Part shown: in pieces, positions 30,983 to 44,675 of the stretch | How positions within the stretch are numbered: position 1 is the stretch's first letter | Layout of the letters: each line of letters starts with the position of its first letter | DNA from: Candidatus Latescibacterota bacterium | Lineage (GTDB): Bacteria; Latescibacterota; UBA2968 | NCBI GenBank assembly: GCA_965204745.1 | Contig: OZ242010.1 | Coordinates: 2,816,001-2,880,000 of the forward strand | Direction: 5' to 3' | DNA: 64,000 nt | Notes under the pieces: model-generated | Seen by the model: only the letters and a program-made list of their open reading frames with translations | The model's database searches: none | What the model was told of the DNA's origin: nothing | Program-made: the position numbers and the translations under genes

Positions 30983-31050
30983 CAATGGTCGGGACGCGAC
31001 CCCGAGCGCGCACCAGATCCCTTACAACCCCCTCATCACAGGAGGCCCCC

Positions 31051-31965: not shown

Positions 31966-32115
31966 ATGGTCCGTTCCAAACTTTTGCGTATCTTACGTCT
32001 TGTACTTTGCACTCGATAACGAATTTGCGCGTCCGCGCTCCTTGGGGCCAGACGATGAGCAGATCGGTACGCAAACGGCCCAAGCCATACTCGCGCTCAA
32101 TATGCCCACCGCTGT

Positions 32116-33501
32116 TCATGATCCTTTGCAAAATTTGCGCGTCCGCGCTCCTTGGGGCCAGACGATGAGCAGATCGGTACGCAAACGGCCCAAGCCATAC
32201 TCGCGCTCAATATGCCCACCGCTGTTCATGATCCTTTGCAAAAACGCCTGTAACAGCAACTGGGGGCCGGCCTCTCGATACGCGAATCGCTTGACCCAAT
32301 GCTCGGAATTTTCGCGGAAAAAGGTCTGGAACGCGACCAGCAATTTGACCACATCCAAACTGCCATCGGCGTTGACGTACCAAGTTGTTTCTTGCTCAAA
32401 TTCCCCTTGGACCACCCACGTCAGTTCGCGGGGCACGACTTCGGCGTAGATCGGATTGGCGATGTGATACGGCTGATCTTGACCCACGAGCCCGAGATCC
32501 TGTACATACTCCAAATCGCGATCCGTGAAGTGGCGGTCCTCATCGCCGCCGCTCAAGATCGGTTCGATAATGCGTTGCACGCGGTCTTCTTTGAGTTTGT
32601 CAGCCAACTGGTCGAGATGTGTTTCGCGGCGCAAGATGAGTTGTTCTTGGGCTTCTCGGATGTCGTCCTCGGTGATCGGATCAATCCGCGCCTCTGCGGC
32701 CTCGTCTCGGAAGCAGGTTTCATCCGCCAGCGCGTTGACCAGCCAGGGCTGTCCTTGCGTCTGCGTCCAGATCAATTCCAGCGCGTCAGGCGTAAATACC
32801 TGCCCGGTTCCCTCGGTGTGTTGCGCGAGCAGGGCGTGTACCTCGTCCTGCGAAAAGTCGCCCAAGCGCAGGGATCGCGCCTTGATGTTAAACGCGCTCC
32901 CGCCAGTGATGGTCGCATTCGCAGAACCGGAATGGATGCGGTAATCGCGCACGTCGCGCACCCCGCACAAAATCACGCTTTGCGGAAAGTGCTCAGGACG
33001 CTGGTCGTAGCCAGCGCGCAACTGCCGCAACACAGAGAGGAGCGAGTCGCCAATCAGCGAATCGATCTCGTCAATGAGCAGCACCAAGGGGGTCGGATCT
33101 ACCTCGGCCCAGCGCGTCAACGCCTCTTGCAAAGCCGCATCTGGTCCGACCTCGGCAAGGAGACCTGACCAGACCTTGCCCAAAAAGTCGTCGCCCAAGG
33201 TCATGCGTGCCCGAGACGCCAATCCAGCCAGAATAGCGCGCATCACCCGTTCCACATCTTCGCGTGCGGCCTGCCCGGCTTCAACATTGACGTACACGCA
33301 GCGGTACGCGCCTTCGGCGTTGAGCAAATCGCGCAAGGCCAGCAGGGCCGAGGTCTTGCCCGTTTGCCGAGGCGCGTGCAACACAAAGTAGCGTTTGTCC
33401 CGGATGAGGCGGCGCACCTCGTTGAGATTCAATCGCTCCAAAGGCGGAATGCAGTAGTGATCCGCAACCACCACCGGCCCGCTGGTGTTGAAGAAGCGCA
33501 T
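32116..33501 (-). CDS. AAA-like ATPase with C-terminal PD-(D/E)xK-like domain; 3' end disrupted
   Basis: MRFFNTSGP, HAPRQTGKT, LLIDEID, GSAFNIK, REYGLGR.RTDL; 110-bp tandem duplication at 32022-32241. Confidence 0.85.
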   Translation of the reverse strand: MRFFNTSGPVVVADHYCIPPLERLNLNEVRRLIRDKRYFVLHAPRQTGKTSALLALRDLLNAEGAYRCVYVNVEAGQAAREDVERVMRAILAGLASRARMTLGDDFLGKVWSGLLAEVGPDAALQEALTRWAEVDPTPLVLLIDEIDSLIGDSLLSVLRQLRAGYDQRPEHFPQSVILCGVRDVRDYRIHSGSANATITGGSAFNIKARSLRLGDFSQDEVHALLAQHTEGTGQVFTPDALELIWTQTQGQPWLVNALADETCFRDEAAEARIDPITEDDIREAQEQLILRRETHLDQLADKLKEDRVQRIIEPILSGGDEDRHFTDRDLEYVQDLGLVGQDQPYHIANPIYAEVVPRELTWVVQGEFEQETTWYVNADGSLDVVKLLVAFQTFFRENSEHWVKRFAYREAGPQLLLQAFLQRIMNSGGHIEREYGLGRLRTDLLIVWPQGARTRKFCKGS

Positions 33502-34671: not shown

Positions 34672-35088
34672 TCAACGAACACATAAGTTGCCCAAGTCAA
34701 GAATGAGGTCACGGAGGAGGGAGTGGTACTTTGCGTCTCTAATTTCTTTCTCCGTCAGTTTCGATTTCGGGGGTTTGTTTTTATTTTCGGCTGGATGCCG
34801 CCCCGTGTTGCGAACCCATATGTCATACAAATGCCCCTCGGCCTCCTCGGCTTCGGCAATCGTCTGAGTCGGTATCCATATTGCGTATTCCGCGATGCCA
34901 TTGATCCGTTCGTTTTCCTCGTCTAACCCGAAATGGTCGGTGAGTCTATTGCGAAGGTCCTTTGCTTTGCCGACATAGATGAAGTCGCCATTCTCCGCGA
35001 ACAGCAGGTAGTATCCGGGGGAAACGGGTACTTGCGTGATATTCCTTATGGGTAAGCCGCACTTTTCAACTACAAAATTCCAATCCAT
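34672..35088 (-). CDS. Stand-alone GIY-YIG nuclease, copy 1
   Basis: PGYYLL...FIYVGKAKDLRNRL..H...AEEAE...P..N. Confidence 0.85.
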   Translation of the reverse strand: MDWNFVVEKCGLPIRNITQVPVSPGYYLLFAENGDFIYVGKAKDLRNRLTDHFGLDEENERINGIAEYAIWIPTQTIAEAEEAEGHLYDIWVRNTGRHPAENKNKPPKSKLTEKEIRDAKYHSLLRDLILDLGNLCVR

Positions 35089-35398
35089 AATTATATCCTT
35101 TCTTTGCTAAATTTGTTGCGATTAGTGTGATGGGATCAATCCCCTGTATTAAAAACATATTATGCCGGTGGAGAGGCAAAGTCAAGGCCCGAGAGCCAAA
35201 AATTTTCATTATCGCCGCAAAAAACAAAAAAGACCCCGCAACTCGTTGCAGGGCCTCTTGAGATTATGTGCTATGTGCAGTGCAGATCACTGGAATTTAT
35301 GTTTTGTGCCGTATCGCTTGATAAACATCCGCTTCTCTTCTTCGGTCGGTTTGGGGTTTCGGACTTTCGGGTTACATGTCGCCCAACCCACCTCAAAG

Positions 35399-35671
35399 TC
35401 ACAGAACTTCAACACTCGCAACAATTCGTCCATAAACATCACGAGTCTGTACAGTGCAACGAACCATTTTGCCTTGAAGGGCATTTTGGAGCTGAATTTT
35501 TGCAATGTTACCTTGCCGGGTCCCCAATTCTGGCGCATCGATATCAGCAATCCGAATGTGTTCATACTGATTGTAGTTATATTCATTGGATTCTCCGATA
35601 CGGGTGACTTGCATTTCAAACGTGTCACCATCAATAACACGGATAACTGGTCCTTCAATAATATCAGCCAT
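35399..35671 (-). CDS. Minimal thermonuclease (SNase-like), copy 1
   Basis: VIRVIDGDTF, IRIADIDAPE, RDVYGRIVA; GGAGG RBS. Confidence 0.88.
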   Translation of the reverse strand: MADIIEGPVIRVIDGDTFEMQVTRIGESNEYNYNQYEHIRIADIDAPELGTRQGNIAKIQLQNALQGKMVRCTVQTRDVYGRIVASVEVL

Positions 35672-35714
35672 TTCAACCTCCTTGAAAATCAGGTTACGTT
35701 TTCTATGGGATTAG

Positions 35715-35743
35715 ATAATATCAACAAATCTGAACCTTGTCAA
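35715..35743 (-). promoter_or_regulatory. Sigma70 promoter of thermonuclease copy 1
   Basis: TTGACA-17 nt-TATTAT; the -10 box is absent from copy 2. Confidence 0.7.
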
Positions 35744-35821
35744 GGACTTTTTAGTGTTTCCTGTGGTTTTTTAGTATTACTCGCCCTGTTTCTCTTGCTT
35801 TCAACAAGTGCGATCCGTCAG

Positions 35822-36229
35822 TTACAACTCAATGACAAAATCGGGATTCGACATGTTCTTTTTGAACTCGGCGAAGTCCTTCAGTGGATTTTCTTGAATA
35901 ATCCCAAGAATACCGCCAAGTGCCACTTGAAGTTCGTTGTCGTTGCCCGAGTCTGTTGCCCGATGAAGCAGATGGTAGAACTGTTCCAGTGCCACCTTCC
36001 GCTCTGCGAACCGATGCTCGAAATAGGTGAGAATAACTTCCTTTTCGTTGTTGAGTGCAGTGACAAGCACATCTCGCTTAGACCAGATTTCTTCTCGCTT
36101 TGTCCGCTCCTCTGAGCGAATTTTGTAGTATGCTATTGCCTCGGTGATAAGAGGCAAGACGTTGACCGCACTGCCAGCCGCCCTGCTGACTTTCCCGCCA
36201 ACTTTCATTACCGTCCCTACTTTTGACAT
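35822..36229 (-). CDS. Hypothetical alpha-helical/coiled-coil protein
   Basis: 135 aa, AGGAGG RBS, long helical segment EERTKREEIW...FEHRFAER. Confidence 0.8.
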   Translation of the reverse strand: MSKVGTVMKVGGKVSRAAGSAVNVLPLITEAIAYYKIRSEERTKREEIWSKRDVLVTALNNEKEVILTYFEHRFAERKVALEQFYHLLHRATDSGNDNELQVALGGILGIIQENPLKDFAEFKKNMSNPDFVIEL

Positions 36230-36328
36230 GGTTGTGCAAACCTCCTATAAGTGATTGAAAAGGATTGTAGGCGGTCCAAATTGACTGCCCTTCCACCTAG
36301 CACAGATTGTTCTGTGCGAAGGCTCTTT

Positions 36329-37222
36329 TTACGGAATGATGTTTCCGTTCTTATCGACGATGGCGACATCCAGAAGATCGCCCAAGGTCTTTGCCGTGCG
36401 GGCGACTTGGTAAGCATCCCCTAAGTCTGCCGGGTTGCCTCGGTTGAGCAGTCGGTCAAGTGCCCGATCTACCTCGTCGGTAGATTCGTGCAACTCATCC
36501 ACTCGGCGCAATACGGTTTTGATCACTGCGATCTGCTGTTTCCTCTGCGCTTCGGCTTTATCCATCTCGGCGATCTGCTTTTCTACCTCTGTTTTGACTT
36601 TTTCAGCCTTAGAATTGGCGAAAAATCCCGCCACCAGCAAGGCTGGTCCGGCGACGAGACCGCCGAATACTACCGTGCCGAGTGCTACGCCACCACCGCC
36701 CGCAGCAAGCGAACCACCACCCAACCAAGCGAGAGTGGCACTCTTGGCCGCTGCACCGCTAAGGGTACCAATCGCTGTACCGGTTGAGGCCGTCCCGAAC
36801 ACGCTGACCGCACCATAGACGCCCGTAGCCGTTGCTACACCAGCGGCTCCACTCTTAGCGATGCCGCCGAGCACTTCAACCGCGTGTGCCGATACACCTT
36901 CCCACGCCGCCAATTTCTGAGGCGTGATCTCAAATCGTTGCTCCAAGTCGCGCTCGTGGATCTTTGCCCTTTTCAGAAAGTCCACGGCACGCCCTATTGT
37001 AACGAGAGCTCCCAATCTTCGCCGTTCCAATGCTTCAAACTTTGCTTCTGCGTTTTCCCACCAACCCTTATAGCGTCGCTCAGCAAAGCCATAATCAGTA
37101 CGGCGACGATCATAGCGTTCTTTGGCGTTTTTGATTTTGTCCTTGGCGTCTAACATACTACCGATACCACCGCCAATAGAGGCACCTATCGCAGCACCTG
37201 CAATAATGAGTGGAAGAGGCAT
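36329..37222 (-). CDS. Coiled-coil protein with a central glycine-zipper hydrophobic hairpin
   Basis: MPLPLIIAG start with AGGAG RBS; FGTASTGTAIGTLSGAAA..ATLAWLGGGSLAAGGGG. Confidence 0.85.
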   Translation of the reverse strand: MPLPLIIAGAAIGASIGGGIGSMLDAKDKIKNAKERYDRRRTDYGFAERRYKGWWENAEAKFEALERRRLGALVTIGRAVDFLKRAKIHERDLEQRFEITPQKLAAWEGVSAHAVEVLGGIAKSGAAGVATATGVYGAVSVFGTASTGTAIGTLSGAAAKSATLAWLGGGSLAAGGGGVALGTVVFGGLVAGPALLVAGFFANSKAEKVKTEVEKQIAEMDKAEAQRKQQIAVIKTVLRRVDELHESTDEVDRALDRLLNRGNPADLGDAYQVARTAKTLGDLLDVAIVDKNGNIIP

Positions 37223-37286
37223 AACGAATACTCCTTTCCTCAAAAAGATGAACACCTTTACGAACAAAACATATTTGCCGAGCCTT

Positions 37287-37502
37287 TTAACTATCTCTCC
37301 CTTCCGACTCGTCTTTTTCCTGGGATTTATGTTTTGCGCCGTATCGCTTGATAAACATCCACTTCTCTTCTTCGGTCGGTTTGGGGTTTCGGACTTTCGG
37401 GTTACATGTCGCCCAGCCCACCTCAAAATTGATGCGTTTTGCAAACGCTTTCTCCGCCTCTATTTCAGCGACGGTGGGGTAAAGCCTATCTCGCGGTGTC
37501 AC
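37287..37502 (-). CDS. Small hypothetical protein coupled to thermonuclease copy 2
   Basis: GTGA overlap with the nuclease stop; the homolog in copy 1 is broken by a 70-bp deletion. Confidence 0.45.
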   Translation of the reverse strand: MTPRDRLYPTVAEIEAEKAFAKRINFEVGWATCNPKVRNPKPTEEEKWMFIKRYGAKHKSQEKDESEGRDS

Positions 37503-37774
37503 AGAACTTTAACACTTGCAACAATTCGTCCATAAACGTCACGAGTCTGTACAGTGCAACGAACCATTTTGCCTTGACGGGCATTTTGGAGCCGATCTCT
37601 TGCAATTCTACCTTGCCGGGTCCCCAATTCCGGCGCATCGATATCAGCAATCCGAATGCGTTCATACTGATTGTAGTCATCATATTCATTGAATTTTCCA
37701 GTATGAGTGACTTGCATGTCAAACGTGTCACCATCAATAACATGGGTAACTGGTCCTTGAATAATATCAGCCAT
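37499..37774 (-). CDS. Minimal thermonuclease (SNase-like), copy 2
   Basis: VTHVIDGDTF, IRIADIDAPE, RDVYGRIVA. Confidence 0.88.
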   Translation of the reverse strand: MADIIQGPVTHVIDGDTFDMQVTHTGKFNEYDDYNQYERIRIADIDAPELGTRQGRIARDRLQNARQGKMVRCTVQTRDVYGRIVASVKVL

Positions 37775-37884
37775 TTCGACCTCCTTGAAAGTCAGGTTAC
37801 GTTTTCTGCCAAAAAAATCAGAACCACGTCAAGGTCTTTTTAGTGTTTCCTGTGGTTTTTTTACTATTACTCGCTCTGTGCCGT

Positions 37885-38643
37885 TTAGAACTCTACGTTG
37901 ATGGTGAGCGTGAACTCCGTTTGTTCGCGCACATGACGATCATAGCCTGCTTCCAGCGATAGAAAGGTGGGGATATCAAGCCTGACCAGAACATTAAGGT
38001 TGCGTTGTACTTCACTGGTCATGTTTAACCGGAGGTTTCGGCTTATGAGTTGGTTATTCGAGTTTTTGCACATTTCGAGAAGTGATCTCATATTGGCGTC
38101 GCCCAATAATCCTTTTTGCTTTAGGAGTTCCTTAGCCGCCTGCACATTTGGAGAGCCGCCCTTGAATTCGTCCGTCAGGTTTAGTTGGTTGCTAAACGAA
38201 GTCAACTCTTCATTTTCTTTTTTTCCTTCTACGCCCCTCCCGAGTACGTTGCCTTCAACAGAAACGGTTTCTTTACCCTTGGCGTTTTTATGCTCAACCT
38301 GTTCTACTGTGACCTTGCTGGCACCTAACAGGCCGCATAACGTGGAAAAGTGCAGGTGTTTCTCCAGTGCGAAACGCTCCACCGCCTGTTTTGAGTCTTC
38401 GTACACATCTTTATCAAATGGGCTTTGAATCAGTACAGCTCCTGACCGGGCAAGCCCACTGTCAAATAGACCTTGTACGACTGAGTTGGACTGCTTCGAA
38501 GAAGAAGGAAGTATATAGACTTCTTCGTTGAGCAAGAGTTCAGCACCGCCATCCCGATACTCTAAAGCATCAATCTCAGGCTGGTTGAGCACAAATACAG
38601 TTTTGCGACGATGGGGTTCATTCGGCCATGTACTATCGGTCAT
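37885..38643 (-). CDS. Hypothetical protein, possible beta-pore-forming (MACPF/CDC/gasdermin-like) core
   Basis: Clear ORF with AGGAG RBS; SPF...Y, LLGASKV followed by amphipathic strands, ends TLTINVEF; the fold is inference. Confidence 0.7.
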   Translation of the reverse strand: MTDSTWPNEPHRRKTVFVLNQPEIDALEYRDGGAELLLNEEVYILPSSSKQSNSVVQGLFDSGLARSGAVLIQSPFDKDVYEDSKQAVERFALEKHLHFSTLCGLLGASKVTVEQVEHKNAKGKETVSVEGNVLGRGVEGKKENEELTSFSNQLNLTDEFKGGSPNVQAAKELLKQKGLLGDANMRSLLEMCKNSNNQLISRNLRLNMTSEVQRNLNVLVRLDIPTFLSLEAGYDRHVREQTEFTLTINVEF

Positions 38644-38718
38644 TGTGTCTCCTTTGAGTAATTTGGCGAGTTGGTTCTGGGCGAGGTTCTGAATGAGAAC
38701 GCCTCGTCTTGCGTTCTT

Positions 38719-39228
38719 TCATTTTCGGAAAACGATTTCGTATATTATCCATAACACTGCCAAAAAGATTGACACGCCCACCGCTCCTCGTACTATCTTC
38801 CGGCGTCTTCTGATTTTTTTTTTTACTTCTAAGATAGCCACAACACCGTGACGAGCCACCTTTTGGCTGTCATCTGAAATCGTTCTGCCAATACGCTCGG
38901 CAAAACCCACCATAGCTTTGACGACATCATCAGGCCACGATTCCGATGGCTCAGCAGATACATGACCATAGCAAAGGATCGGCGCAATTCTGCCGGCGTT
39001 ATCCAACTGATCAGAGGGCGTCTGCAAGAGGAATTTATCGCCATACAAAAACGCAGTATGCGAACCTTCCGAGAAGCTCCTGGCGCCGTTTGAAGAAACT
39101 TCTGATATTTTTTGCGCTAAATCTTGGCGTTCAGTCACGTTCTCTTCTGCAAGAAAGTGCCCGTTGACCTCCATAGGGTCGGTGGTCTGATTGTCCAGAC
39201 TTTGAGCGCGAAAAGATAGATTGTCCAT
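38719..39228 (-). CDS. C-terminally membrane-anchored protein with a D-x-x-G-R-x-x-P motif
   Basis: LDNAGRIAPILCYG; KKKIRRRRK then a TM helix; TAATG coupling to the GTPase. Confidence 0.75.
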   Translation of the reverse strand: MDNLSFRAQSLDNQTTDPMEVNGHFLAEENVTERQDLAQKISEVSSNGARSFSEGSHTAFLYGDKFLLQTPSDQLDNAGRIAPILCYGHVSAEPSESWPDDVVKAMVGFAERIGRTISDDSQKVARHGVVAILEVKKKIRRRRKIVRGAVGVSIFLAVLWIIYEIVFRK

Positions 39229-39911
39229 TATTCTTGTATCTCACTAAATATCTGAAATACCAATTTTTCTGTGTCCCTTTTCCACTTCAAGCTACCCAAT
39301 ACGACCCTTACCTTATTTTTTCCTCCACCGAGTTGCACAATTTTTTGAATGATAGGCATTTTATATACCCGATCTTTATAGTCTCCAATTTGATCTTCTG
39401 GCAATTTAGTTAAGTCAGGCTTAGTAAGGTCGCAGTGCGTTCCAATAATGAAGAAAGGGTCATCTTTGGGGTTATCCTGCAACCACCCTCCAATTTGCCA
39501 CATATCAGCCTCAACCCGAACTTCGGTCCTTTTATCGCCTTTCATCAACTTATCTATACGCAAGAGATACAGTACGATATCCGCGTCGGCTGTAATAGAT
39601 TTCCATACAGCATAGTCATCTTTGCTTCCAGGCACATCGTTCGATGCCTTAATCTTTAGAGACAAATCTTTGAGCTTAAAACGGCGAGCGGCGGTTTTTT
39701 CTTTTGCGATTGTCTGCTCATACTTTTCCGGTATAGTGCCTTCGGTCAAGAAGTTAATCAACACGGTTTTTCCAACCCGACGCTCTCCAAGGACAGCGAG
39801 TTTCTTGCCCCCGTGGGCTATTACAATTTTGTCCCAGTTTAAGGCGACAGCACCTGTAGCAAGTGCAGCTACAGCAATAATAATGGGAATCCAAATCATG
39901 GTAACCTCCAA
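39228..39911 (-). CDS. Membrane-anchored small (Ras/Arf-like) GTPase
   Basis: N-terminal TM; G1 GERRVGKT, G2 YEQT, G3 DVPG, G4 THCD; start may be 39899. Confidence 0.85.
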   Translation of the reverse strand: MEVTMIWIPIIIAVAALATGAVALNWDKIVIAHGGKKLAVLGERRVGKTVLINFLTEGTIPEKYEQTIAKEKTAARRFKLKDLSLKIKASNDVPGSKDDYAVWKSITADADIVLYLLRIDKLMKGDKRTEVRVEADMWQIGGWLQDNPKDDPFFIIGTHCDLTKPDLTKLPEDQIGDYKDRVYKMPIIQKIVQLGGGKNKVRVVLGSLKWKRDTEKLVFQIFSEIQE

Positions 39912-40021
39912 AATTTAAGAATGAGAAGCCAAAATGACCACTTGCAGGTGACTCCGAATTTTTAACTCGCAGAATATATTTCAGAATTGTCCCGCGTATC
40001 CTTACCAGCAAGATTTGATAA

Positions 40022-40854
40022 TTATTCTAATATCAGGGGCGCGTCGTCATACGTTTGCTTGACGGTGCTCTCGTCATAGATGCGTTCAAGTTTTCGAACG
40101 ATAAAATGTCCCCGAGCCATATTCTGAAAGTGATCGATAAAAATCGTGTTAATTGCGGCACCGCCAATTGCCCCGATCACTGGTAGGGCTTGAGCCGCTA
40201 CCTTCTGCGATACAACAACGCCAAAGCGCGAAGCGATCTGGGAGATAAGGCGAACAAGGGCAGGCGCTCTAACTCCTTGGGCAAGAACCTGCGGATTGGC
40301 AAGAAATCGGGCGGCATCGACAACCTCATGGGTTAGCAACATCCGAACTGCAAAATAGCTTGATTTAGTAGCATCATTTTCATCAGATTGACCACCCAAA
40401 GCAAAGACCTCTAAGCAAGCCAGTCTCGCCTCCATGCCTTCAAGGTTTTCCCCCTGGCTCCTCGCTATGTCAGCGATGGAGCGAAGCATGATTGCTGTGG
40501 AAAGCGGCAGTTCGATTGCGAGTGCCTTTAGACCGAATGCGCCACCGATGCTTCCAGTTCCCATGACCATAAGTTTATGCATGGCATTGCTGGGATCTAC
40601 GATGGATGTCGTATCCAGAGTTTTTACCGCGACCTGTAATCCTTTCTCCAAAGTGTCTCTGCTGAGCTGATTGATTATATCAGCATACTCGGGCGGAAGT
40701 CTCTCAAAGCCAGCTTCGATAGGTCTTCCAATAGTCTCTCAAAGCCAGCTTCGATAGGTCTTCCAATCGCAACGGTGAGTTTTTGTGCGAGGCTGGTTGA
40801 TTCAAGCAAACGTTTGGCCTCGTGTAATTCGTCCAGATGTTCTTTGAGCAACAT
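40022..40854 (-). pseudogene. EcsC-family protein split by a 35-bp tandem duplication
   Basis: IELPLST.IMLRSIADIARSQGE, CLEVFALGG, IASRFGVVVSQK..AQALPVIGA; duplication 40698-40732/40733-40767. Confidence 0.85.
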
Positions 40855-41107
40855 CGTTTCTCCTTTCGCGTGAGGATTGTTATTGGCACTTTTTGCTGTG
40901 ACTGCCAAACTAAAGAAGGCGCACGGAAAAATCAAGTGGCTTTCTCCGCTTTTTTAGGTTGGTGAGAATCATTTGCCGCGCTTCGATTTCACCCACATAG
41001 CCACAATACCCACTGCTATCCCCCCAAAGCCAGTCTCTTGTTACGTCGTTTCTTTATTGAGCACTTGAGCGTGATTCCGAATCGTTCATAACCGTCATCT
41101 ATGGGCC

Positions 41108-41668
41108 TCAGGCTCTTAGCGACCGGAGCTCGTTCAGAATTTGGCGGAGGCGGAGTTTTGCGATCTTGGTTTCGTTGTCCCGCAGTTTCGATTTCGGGGG
41201 TTTGTTTTTGTTTGCGAATGGAGGCAGACCCGTGTTGCGAACCCATGTGTCATACAAATGCCCCTCGGCCTCCTCGGCTTCGGCAATCGTCTGAGTTGGC
41301 ATCCATATTGCGTATTTCGCGATGCCATTGATCCGTTCGTTTTCCTCGTGCGGTCCATCTTCACCCTGCCCAAAATGGTTAACGAGTCTCTGGTGGAGGT
41401 TATCCGCTTTGCCGACATAGATGAAGTCGCCATTCTCCGCGAACAGCATGTAATATCCGAGGGTCGTCGGTGCTTGTGCGATATCTTCTACATACAAGCC
41501 GTATGCCTTGGCTAAATCAAAAAAATTCCAGTCCTCGGATTTATCACGCCCGCGGATCAGCGCATGATAGATACTGTTGAGCATAGTTTTTTTTCTTTTT
41601 TCTGCCCGATCCCGACCCCTGATTAACTGCTCGCCTAACGAGACAGCAGAAGCGTGTTTAGAATCCAT
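41108..41668 (-). CDS. GIY-YIG nuclease copy 2 with N-terminal extension
   Basis: GYYMLFAENGDFIYVGKA; core nearly identical to 34672-35088; extension contains LIRGRD twice. Confidence 0.85.
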   Translation of the reverse strand: MDSKHASAVSLGEQLIRGRDRAEKRKKTMLNSIYHALIRGRDKSEDWNFFDLAKAYGLYVEDIAQAPTTLGYYMLFAENGDFIYVGKADNLHQRLVNHFGQGEDGPHEENERINGIAKYAIWMPTQTIAEAEEAEGHLYDTWVRNTGLPPFANKNKPPKSKLRDNETKIAKLRLRQILNELRSLRA

Positions 41669-42929: not shown

Positions 42930-43137
42930 TGACTTTGACCTCAAATTTTCGGATTGCTGGTTTCAAACTCGGTTGCGGGGGTTCAAAGTACAGTTCCAAT
43001 GCTTCCCCGAGATGGGTCAATGCTTCTTCTTCGCTTTCGCCTTGACTGGCAATATCCACCTCTAAACACTGGGCGATAAACCAGTCCTCTTCTCGCCAGA
43101 TACTCGCCGTAAAAACTTGCGTTTTCATCTTTGCCAT
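42919..43137 (-). CDS. hicB: HicB-family antitoxin
   Basis: WFIAQCLEVDIASQGESEEEAL..L.EALELYFE. Confidence 0.9.
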   Translation of the reverse strand: MAKMKTQVFTASIWREEDWFIAQCLEVDIASQGESEEEALTHLGEALELYFEPPQPSLKPAIRKFEVKVSAA

Positions 43138-44089: not shown

Positions 44090-44540
44090 CTCTTAAAACC
44101 TCTCGCGGAGAGCGGATTTCAAGGGTCAAGTAGCCACGCCGGAGATTCACGGAATTGTAGCCATGAATCCGATGCGGATTCACGATGTGTCTGAAGTTCC
44201 AACTCACAAGCACGTTCACGCGGGCAACAGTGGCCATGGCGATGTGTTGAGCATCTGCCCGCATACGCCTGCTGACGATCCCTTCGGATATATAGGCGTC
44301 TGCGAGTTCCTGTGACTCTGTGCTGAGACGCAGAACTTCGATGTGTTCTTCCGGCACCGCGGCAAGGTGAGCACGCACTTCATTCGGAGATGTTGCAAGT
44401 TCTTGAATGGTGAGATCAGAGAGCACGAGCACATAATCTCCCTTGATAAAGCACGCCATCAATCGAATGGAATGCTCGCGCCACTCATCGTCCTCGCATC
44501 CTCCAATCACGGAGGTGTCGATATAGATCCGTGCTTTCAT
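44079..44540 (-). CDS. PIN-domain protein
   Basis: IYIDTSVIGG, DAQHIA, LVSWNFRHIVN, IRSPREV. Confidence 0.9.
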   Translation of the reverse strand: MKARIYIDTSVIGGCEDDEWREHSIRLMACFIKGDYVLVLSDLTIQELATSPNEVRAHLAAVPEEHIEVLRLSTESQELADAYISEGIVSRRMRADAQHIAMATVARVNVLVSWNFRHIVNPHRIHGYNSVNLRRGYLTLEIRSPREVLRDEK

Positions 44541-44675
44541 CTTTGGATTGCTGGTTTCAAACTCGGTTGCGGGGGTTCAAAGTACAGTTCCAATGCTTCC
44601 CCGAGATGGGTCAATGCTTCTTCGCTTTCGCCTTGACTGGCAATATCCATCTCTAAACACTGGGCGATAAACCAG
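44537..44675 (-). pseudogene. HicB fragment (duplicate of 42919-43137)
   Basis: WFIAQCLEMDIASQGESEEALTHLGEALELYFEPP; 5' end replaced by REP sequence. Confidence 0.8.

Follow-up and report, generated by a model that had tools for sequence, protein, structure and literature searches.

A conserved three-gene module encoding a small Ras-like GTPase in a defence-rich island of Candidatus Latescibacterota

We analysed a stretch of 64,000 nucleotides (nt) from a Candidatus Latescibacterota bacterium (contig OZ242010.1, positions 2,816,001 to 2,880,000 of assembly GCA_965204745.1; the window hereafter), in which a first-pass annotation had joined six genes into one membrane-attack or conflict system. 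These six genes fall into three modules that are neighbours but independent of one another, in an island that is variable and rich in defence genes: a trio encoding a small GTPase and proteins of 169 and 252 amino acids (aa), p169 and p252; an EcsC-family gene; and a pair encoding proteins of 297 and 135 aa (p297 and p135). We are highly confident that the trio is a conserved, independent unit, and it is probably a defence or conflict system. The statement as a whole, namely that defence islands harbour in this trio a self-contained and so far undescribed module, is one that we favour with some reserve.

Conservation and genomic setting of the trio

The GTPase stop codon and the p169 start codon overlap by one base in the window (TAATG), and a stop/start overlap recurs in many loci. 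At E<=1e-3 there are 117 homologues of p252, 66 of p169 and 101 of the GTPase. When 60 relatives were searched for the GTPase it was found in five, four of them among 20 congeners and the fifth in a genome from a different family; the congeners carry it at different loci, a patchy distribution, and the order GTPase-p169-p252 is identical in all five. Further loci came from species-representative genomes, and all but one short contig are labelled Candidatus Latescibacterota. The full trio stands in the same order in nine of the ten distinct genome loci that hold p252. At the tenth (L016), p252 lies behind a Zn-ribbon/Gly-zipper membrane protein that shares only the C-terminal helix motif of p169, and there is no GTPase.

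Scanning metagenomes with the p252 alignment yielded 41 loci, and in 27 of these the sequence upstream of p252 extends for at least 1250 nt. Within those 27, tblastn detected the GTPase in every locus and p169 in 26, and an open reading frame (ORF) of the remaining locus (L058) clusters with p169; no violation of the gene order was seen. EcsC, p297, p135, the SNase fragment and the GIY-YIG genes, all present in the window, are absent from all 41 metagenome loci, and across about 50 loci no fourth gene is conserved beside the trio beyond close synteny. Conservation of this three-gene neighbourhood, which the first-pass annotation had put forward as a point to check, is thus borne out.

We also sought fusions among the 150 best p252 representatives. 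Two natural p169-p252 fusions were identified: P0206, whose N-terminus matches p169 (BLASTP 8e-42) and which has p252 at residues 206-456, and P0316, recognised by a p169 profile match (hhalign 93%). In a third protein, P0257, p252 is fused to a Zn-ribbon/Gly-zipper membrane module. These fusions argue, at the level of sequence, that p252 acts on p169 and does so at the membrane. A complex prediction with GTPase residues 27-227, p169 residues 1-140, p252 as the partner and GTP gave no answer (score 0.00) and counts neither way.

Defence genes are recurrent neighbours of the trio, across many genomes that are unrelated to one another. A JukA-like gene (PADLOC JukA, 1.1e-22) starts 2 nt after p252 in loci L013-L015, and its gene cluster (c3) also follows the trio in L011 and L018. 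At L007 the trio is flanked by a complete PDC-M09A+B pair and by an AAA-ATPase/PDDEXK gene. Twenty flanking ORFs of the metagenome loci were scanned, of which nine have defence-typical domains (WYL twice, HEPN_Swt1+DUF499, GmrSD twice, HEPN, NB-ARC/NACHT, PIN, and SF1 helicase+PLD), two are metabolic and nine gave no match; against PADLOC at E<=1e-5, six of ten flanking ORFs match. The PADLOC matches of trio neighbours are HmaC (E=0), the Mokosh-like MkoA (7e-55), HEC-05 (3e-186), HEC-06/SspE-like (6e-44) and WYL (two genes). Housekeeping contexts also occur, at L010, at L023 and in the upstream genes of L013-L015. The defence-like setting described for the window therefore holds there, in relatives and in the metagenome flanks.

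Several further observations concern these loci. The gene after the JukA-like gene in L013-L015 and L018 (e.g. L015:8493-9746) encodes a conserved protein of 320-417 aa with no Pfam or PADLOC match, and this could be a new JukB-type partner. The trio of L011 (G057:C2, 8598-10468) is decaying, with an in-frame TGA in the GTPase gene and a p252 that lacks residues ~138-204. Sequencing runs containing the trio (37885-39911) include several labelled sponge metagenome, X5 having 0.60 of the sampled words; no RNA run is among those listed. Promoter and terminator scans were near chance level and are uninformative on the limits of the operon.

The three proteins

The GTPase matches the Pfam families Ras (PF00071; 5.7e-6, 26.5 bits, cut-off 21.6) and Roc (PF08477; 4.9e-6, 27.2 bits, cut-off 27), in each case above the cut-off, and the same families are precomputed for many of its homologues. 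In an alignment of 26 GTPases, residues G42, G47 and K48 of the P-loop (G1) are invariant and T49 is conserved in at least 90%, as is D92 of the G3 motif DxxG, in which G95 is invariant. The G4 motif is a variant, [TN]-x-x-D (THCD here), in which D161 is conserved in at least 90% of sequences and the Lys is not retained; no Gln follows DxxG. The N-terminus is hydrophobic in 24 of the 26 family members. The N-terminal transmembrane (TM) segment and the G1, G3 and G4 motifs noted at first reading are thus confirmed, and we take the GTPase, on sequence, to be membrane-anchored through its N-terminus with its nucleotide-binding motifs intact.

No family was found for p169 in Pfam (E<=0.1), NCBIfam or PADLOC, and no Pfam family is common to 29 p169 relatives (E<=5); this covers the GAP1-N, -M and -C domains, for which Pfam presumably contains models. 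In the p169 family alignment D76 and R80 are invariant and P83 is conserved in at least 90%, forming the loop earlier singled out as DNAGRIAP. The family also conserves an N-terminal AQxLDN motif and a FAxxIGR helix, followed by a basic tract and a hydrophobic tail, and a C-terminal hydrophobic segment is present in 24 of 29 members, so that p169 is predicted to be tail-anchored. An X5 contig has insertions of 3 nt and 26 nt at 38732-38733, at the C-terminal end of p169, which fit the variable tail length across the family.

An AlphaFold2 model of p169 (predicted local distance difference test, pLDDT, 90) has the order beta-beta-alpha-beta-beta-beta-beta-alpha-alpha. The longin/roadblock/SRX platform has a five-stranded sheet and the order beta-beta-alpha-beta-beta-beta-alpha-alpha. 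Foldseek found no match to the model below E 0.019, and the weak matches obtained include longin/SRX/roadblock-like ones; judged from the model, the p169 domain may have such a fold. Searching the sequences of PDB with a p169 profile gave only chance-level matches (best E 0.17), and an Atlas search returned nothing usable.

The first-pass annotation compared p169 with TagF and GAP1-N, pointing to a D-x-x-G-R-x-x-P motif that TagF is presumed to carry. That motif is indeed conserved in the p169 family, and the basic tract and TM tail are present, but the proposed identity itself is unsupported. TagF_N (PF09867) has no match in p169 or in 28 relatives, and a TagF chain (9t0n) is only a weak Foldseek row for p169 (rank 11, E 0.047, TMq 0.20, root-mean-square deviation 14.7) and lies outside the 50 best VIA rows from the Foldseek top 1000. 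A search for TagF_N in the whole genome at E<=0.01 found nothing, with 14 control genomes equally silent, so that the sensitivity of this search is unproven. The literature offered nothing of use on TagF in combination with longin or DENN.

There is likewise no family for p252 in Pfam, NCBIfam or PADLOC. The protein is soluble, with a TM-like segment in none of 33 members, and its family is large: clustering at 50% identity leaves 930 representatives at E<=1e-3, of which 333 reach E<=1e-30. A tblastn search of plasmid and phage collections gave no match. The predicted structure is confident (pLDDT 85; predicted template-modelling score, pTM, 0.84), and no match to it was found among solved or viral structures. 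An Atlas search returned unnamed clusters only, together with a lead of 0.89 to Bact_GSDM, and no member names were obtained for ten representatives that were queried. The suggestion that p252 is a beta-pore former of the MACPF, CDC or gasdermin type thus finds no support in a confident model. The polar residues Q73, Y81, K95, C103 and E211 are invariant in the family, and their conservation suggests that p252 has a defined site.

Neighbouring modules and layout of the island

All six ORFs are present on the minus strand, each has many homologues, and the motifs first quoted for them (GERRVGKT, DVPG, THCD, LDNAGRIAP, LLGASKV and a Gly/Ala-rich stretch) are all found in the translations. The GC content of the six-gene region is 0.43-0.54, versus 0.55-0.63 in the flanks, and this AT-richer stretch is bounded by two copies of IS110, at 31029 and 45015. 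The window also has genes for HicA, for two PIN proteins, for an AAA ATPase and for a membrane protein with a GAF domain. Coordinates are given in Table 1.

Table 1. Positions in the window of the trio, its neighbouring modules and the flanking repeats.
Feature	Coordinates	Strand	Description
GTPase, core gene 1, 227 aa	39228-39911	minus	small, Ras/Roc-like; N-terminal membrane anchor (residues ~1-26)
p169, core gene 2, 169 aa	38719-39228	minus	alpha/beta domain 1-112, long helix, basic tract, predicted C-terminal TM ~144-168
p252, core gene 3, 252 aa	37885-38643	minus	soluble, unnamed family, no structural match
EcsC-family gene, frameshifted	40022-40857 (40022-40651 + N-terminal piece 40675-40857)	minus	neighbour module
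297-aa protein, pair gene A	36329-37222	minus	coiled coil, Gly/Ala-zipper hairpin, PDC-M09A-like
135-aa protein, pair gene B	35822-36229	minus	helical partner of 297-aa protein
Direct repeat copy 1	37287-37880		directly after p252; truncated SNase-like ORF 37499-37774
Direct repeat copy 2	35290-35789		directly after 135-aa gene; truncated SNase-like ORF 35399-35671
GIY-YIG genes, two copies	41108-41668 and 34672-35088		

The family assignment of the EcsC gene stands, but the gene is not intact here: a 35-nt tandem duplication (copies 40764-40730 and 40729-40695) splits its reading frame. A 209-aa part matches Pfam EcsC (PF12787, 1.2e-25) over profile positions 85-240 only, the N-terminal part being in another frame, and the gene also matches PADLOC PDC-S29 (6.2e-6). 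In the congener G018 the gene is intact (L012:4665-5546; Pfam EcsC 2.9e-30). One X5 contig skips exactly 35 nt at the duplication, and contigs of X1 and X2 break there. Because of the intact G018 gene and the X5 contig without the 35 nt, we conclude that the break is specific to the strain or the assembly and that the broken allele is not universal. EcsC adjoins the trio, directly upstream, only in the window and in G018; we regard the broken gene as a candidate in its own right that lies next to the trio and may serve it as an optional accessory.

The 297-aa protein does have the Gly/Ala-rich stretch first described for it and belongs to an already listed PADLOC candidate, PDC-M09A (PDLC04407, 2.4e-26; PDLC04406, 2.4e-25); NCBIfam matches to XaxA-type (7.1e-4) and NheB (6.9e-3) models are below threshold. 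Its Gly-zipper motif is also present in the bona fide PDC-M09A protein encoded at L007. The 135-aa protein has no family in Pfam, PADLOC or NCBIfam and no similarity to the 486-aa PDC-M09B of L007, whose place it takes. A search of 168 genomes from the phylum found it in ten, G000 among them, and its gene adjoins a 297-aa homologue in L060-L064 and L066, 3.4-kb loci that hold no trio genes; the pair adjoins the trio only in the window. The two genes are a separate PDC-M09A-like membrane-hairpin candidate, a variant of the listed PDC-M09, which itself has candidate status only and is treated as a PADLOC candidate system in the one paper with the term.

This pair is flanked by copies of a direct repeat of about 500 nt that are 90-96% identical (repeat families D3, D4, D7 and D13) and each contain a truncated SNase-like ORF, that of copy 1 matching Pfam SNase at 8.2e-5. 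We considered whether the repeat is a dispersed mobile element and rejected this, because the genome has only these two copies. The island of G018 is syntenic, with EcsC, GTPase, p169 and p252 followed directly by genes for a 199-aa protein, a 124-aa protein and an ATPase. Since the 199-aa gene directly follows p252 there, the window by comparison contains an insertion in which the 297-aa and 135-aa genes, in that order, lie between the two repeats, with GIY-YIG after the second.

Other duplications were seen in the island. The two GIY-YIG genes, the only copies in the genome, have diverged (65% protein identity) and bracket the whole block from EcsC to the 135-aa gene. A perfect 110-nt tandem duplication (two copies, 100% identical) lies at 32022-32241, in the 3' end region of a 461-aa AAA-ATPase gene, and the G018 homologue of this ORF is longer (525 aa). 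A segment of about 140 nt from the antitoxin-like gene beside HicA (DUF7387), at 42945-43084, recurs 1.6 kb away at 44539-44675 with 98% identity, which suggests a second, decayed copy of the HicA-side toxin-antitoxin pair.

Known systems and competing explanations

In PADLOC v2.0.0, Pfam and NCBIfam no named system corresponds to the trio, and p169 and p252 have no model in any of the three; to that extent the earlier remark that the combination was not recognised as a named system is borne out. In bacteria, small Ras-like GTPases are uncommon and little understood. In the full-text literature we found no anti-phage system built on a Ras-like GTPase (DefenseFinder and paywalled papers lie outside this scope), and a 2026 review of defence systems mentions GTPases for GIMAP/Eleos only.

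Among the closest known systems are the DO-GTPase/GAP1 systems. Kaur et al. (2020, PMC7159879) describe GAP1 as three domains, GAP1-N, -M and -C, found with GASH or FNIII components, and DO-GTPases as having a conserved Walker B glutamate and often forming paralogous pairs. The trio resembles these systems in its TRAFAC GTPase, which in them sometimes has an N-terminal TM segment, in a co-evolving partner encoded directly downstream, and in mobile, conflict-type neighbourhoods. It differs in having one Ras/Roc-type GTPase with DVPG and a 169-aa partner without a Pfam family, and in having no GASH or FNIII component: no further gene is conserved beside it in about 50 loci, and p252 is without a Pfam match. 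The eukaryotic SR-beta/SR-alpha SRX pair and the longin-domain GTPase platforms also belong among the closest systems.

An alternative explanation is the one with which the analysis began, that all six genes form one GTP-licensed membrane-attack system composed of EcsC, the GTPase, a TagF/GAP1-N-like anchor, a beta-pore former, a glycine-zipper protein and a helical partner. The genes are adjacent and co-oriented in the window, EcsC is directly upstream of the trio in G018 too, and in L007 the trio is followed, at a distance of 1.4 kb, by a PDC-M09A family gene. We nevertheless regard a six-gene system as very improbable, as EcsC is found beside the trio only in the window and G018, where a 199-aa gene follows the trio with no 297-aa/135-aa pair, and as that pair is found beside it only in the window; in L007 an HTH (helix-turn-helix) gene parts the trio from the complete PDC-M09A+B pair. 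None of the 41 metagenome loci has EcsC, p297 or p135, the p297-p135 pair recurs alone and lies between direct repeats in the window, and EcsC is frameshifted there. A narrower proposal is that the trio supplies the effector part only and that a JukA- or EcsC-type sensor is encoded separately, which would make it a variant of the Juk systems (JukA/JukB) that act against jumbo phages. In one lineage a JukA-like gene is the direct neighbour of the trio, and in the window and G018 EcsC is; a preprint (10.1101/2022.09.17.508391) reports putative operons of EcsC-like genes with jukA and also fusions of JukA to a Ras-like GTPase. Yet the JukA-like neighbour is seen only in a single set of related genomes with synteny, neither gene is present at most of the 41 metagenome loci, and the JukA-like and EcsC proteins are without detectable similarity; the GTPase, p169 and p252 match no JukA or JukB models. 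A query of the L013-L015 type found no JukA-like gene in the window's own genome, a weak point as it had no match anywhere. We consider a Juk-type arrangement improbable, if less so than a six-gene system.

The trio could instead be a membrane-associated G-protein module for signalling or regulation, like MglA-MglB or the actinobacterial conservons (CvnA-D), serving polarity, the envelope or a stress response, with its location in the island incidental. In both cases a small Ras-superfamily GTPase, without Gln after DxxG in the likeness drawn here, is coupled to a small alpha/beta protein with a longin/roadblock-like predicted topology. Conservons are described (PMC13343842) as G-protein systems that include a Ras-like GTPase together with a roadblock protein. 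Some contexts of the trio are non-defence, and no effector domain is recognisable in p252. Against this, Pfam gives no Robl_LC7, DUF742 or histidine-kinase-like match in p169, p252 or the 29 p169 relatives, both the GTPase and p169 are predicted to be membrane-anchored, and there is an obligatory third protein, p252, with no structural match, in a defence-island setting. The trio is moreover patchy within one genus, at differing loci, unrelated contigs repeatedly have defence genes right next to it, and WYL regulators lie beside it in two independent contexts. A signalling role therefore seems to us unlikely, though it is the alternative to be taken most seriously, and a self-contained defence-island module remains the explanation that we prefer.

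If the trio is such a module, the GTPase and p169 would be located side by side at the inner membrane, facing the cytoplasm, where the D76/R80 loop of p169 would serve as a regulator of the GTPase or as an adaptor to the effector. A candidate for the arginine finger is R80, because the GTPase has no Gln after DxxG. The helical region of p169 (~95-140) would hold p252, and a trigger, most plausibly phage infection, would alter the nucleotide state so that p252 is released or activated. We infer both the regulation of the GTPase by p169, perhaps through R80, and the control of p252 by nucleotide state; that the three proteins operate as a switch in this manner is a tentative proposal. It is a bolder and rather unlikely reading that the trio represents a new class of immune system, the first to be based on a Ras-superfamily switch, with a longin/SRX-like, tail-anchored regulator and an effector of about 250 aa with an unseen fold. 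By analogy, the pairing of a membrane-bound small GTPase with a putative longin/SRX-like regulator is otherwise typical of eukaryotic endomembrane GTPase platforms.

An over-merged six-gene call is thus corrected to three modules, one of which is a compact three-gene candidate with two proteins that belong to no family. One of these, p252, has a confident predicted fold without a solved or viral counterpart, and the other, p169, is possibly a bacterial GTPase partner of the longin/SRX-like kind. If the trio were shown to defend its host, it would represent a new switch logic in bacterial immunity and provide a bacterial model of membrane GTPase-platform pairs.

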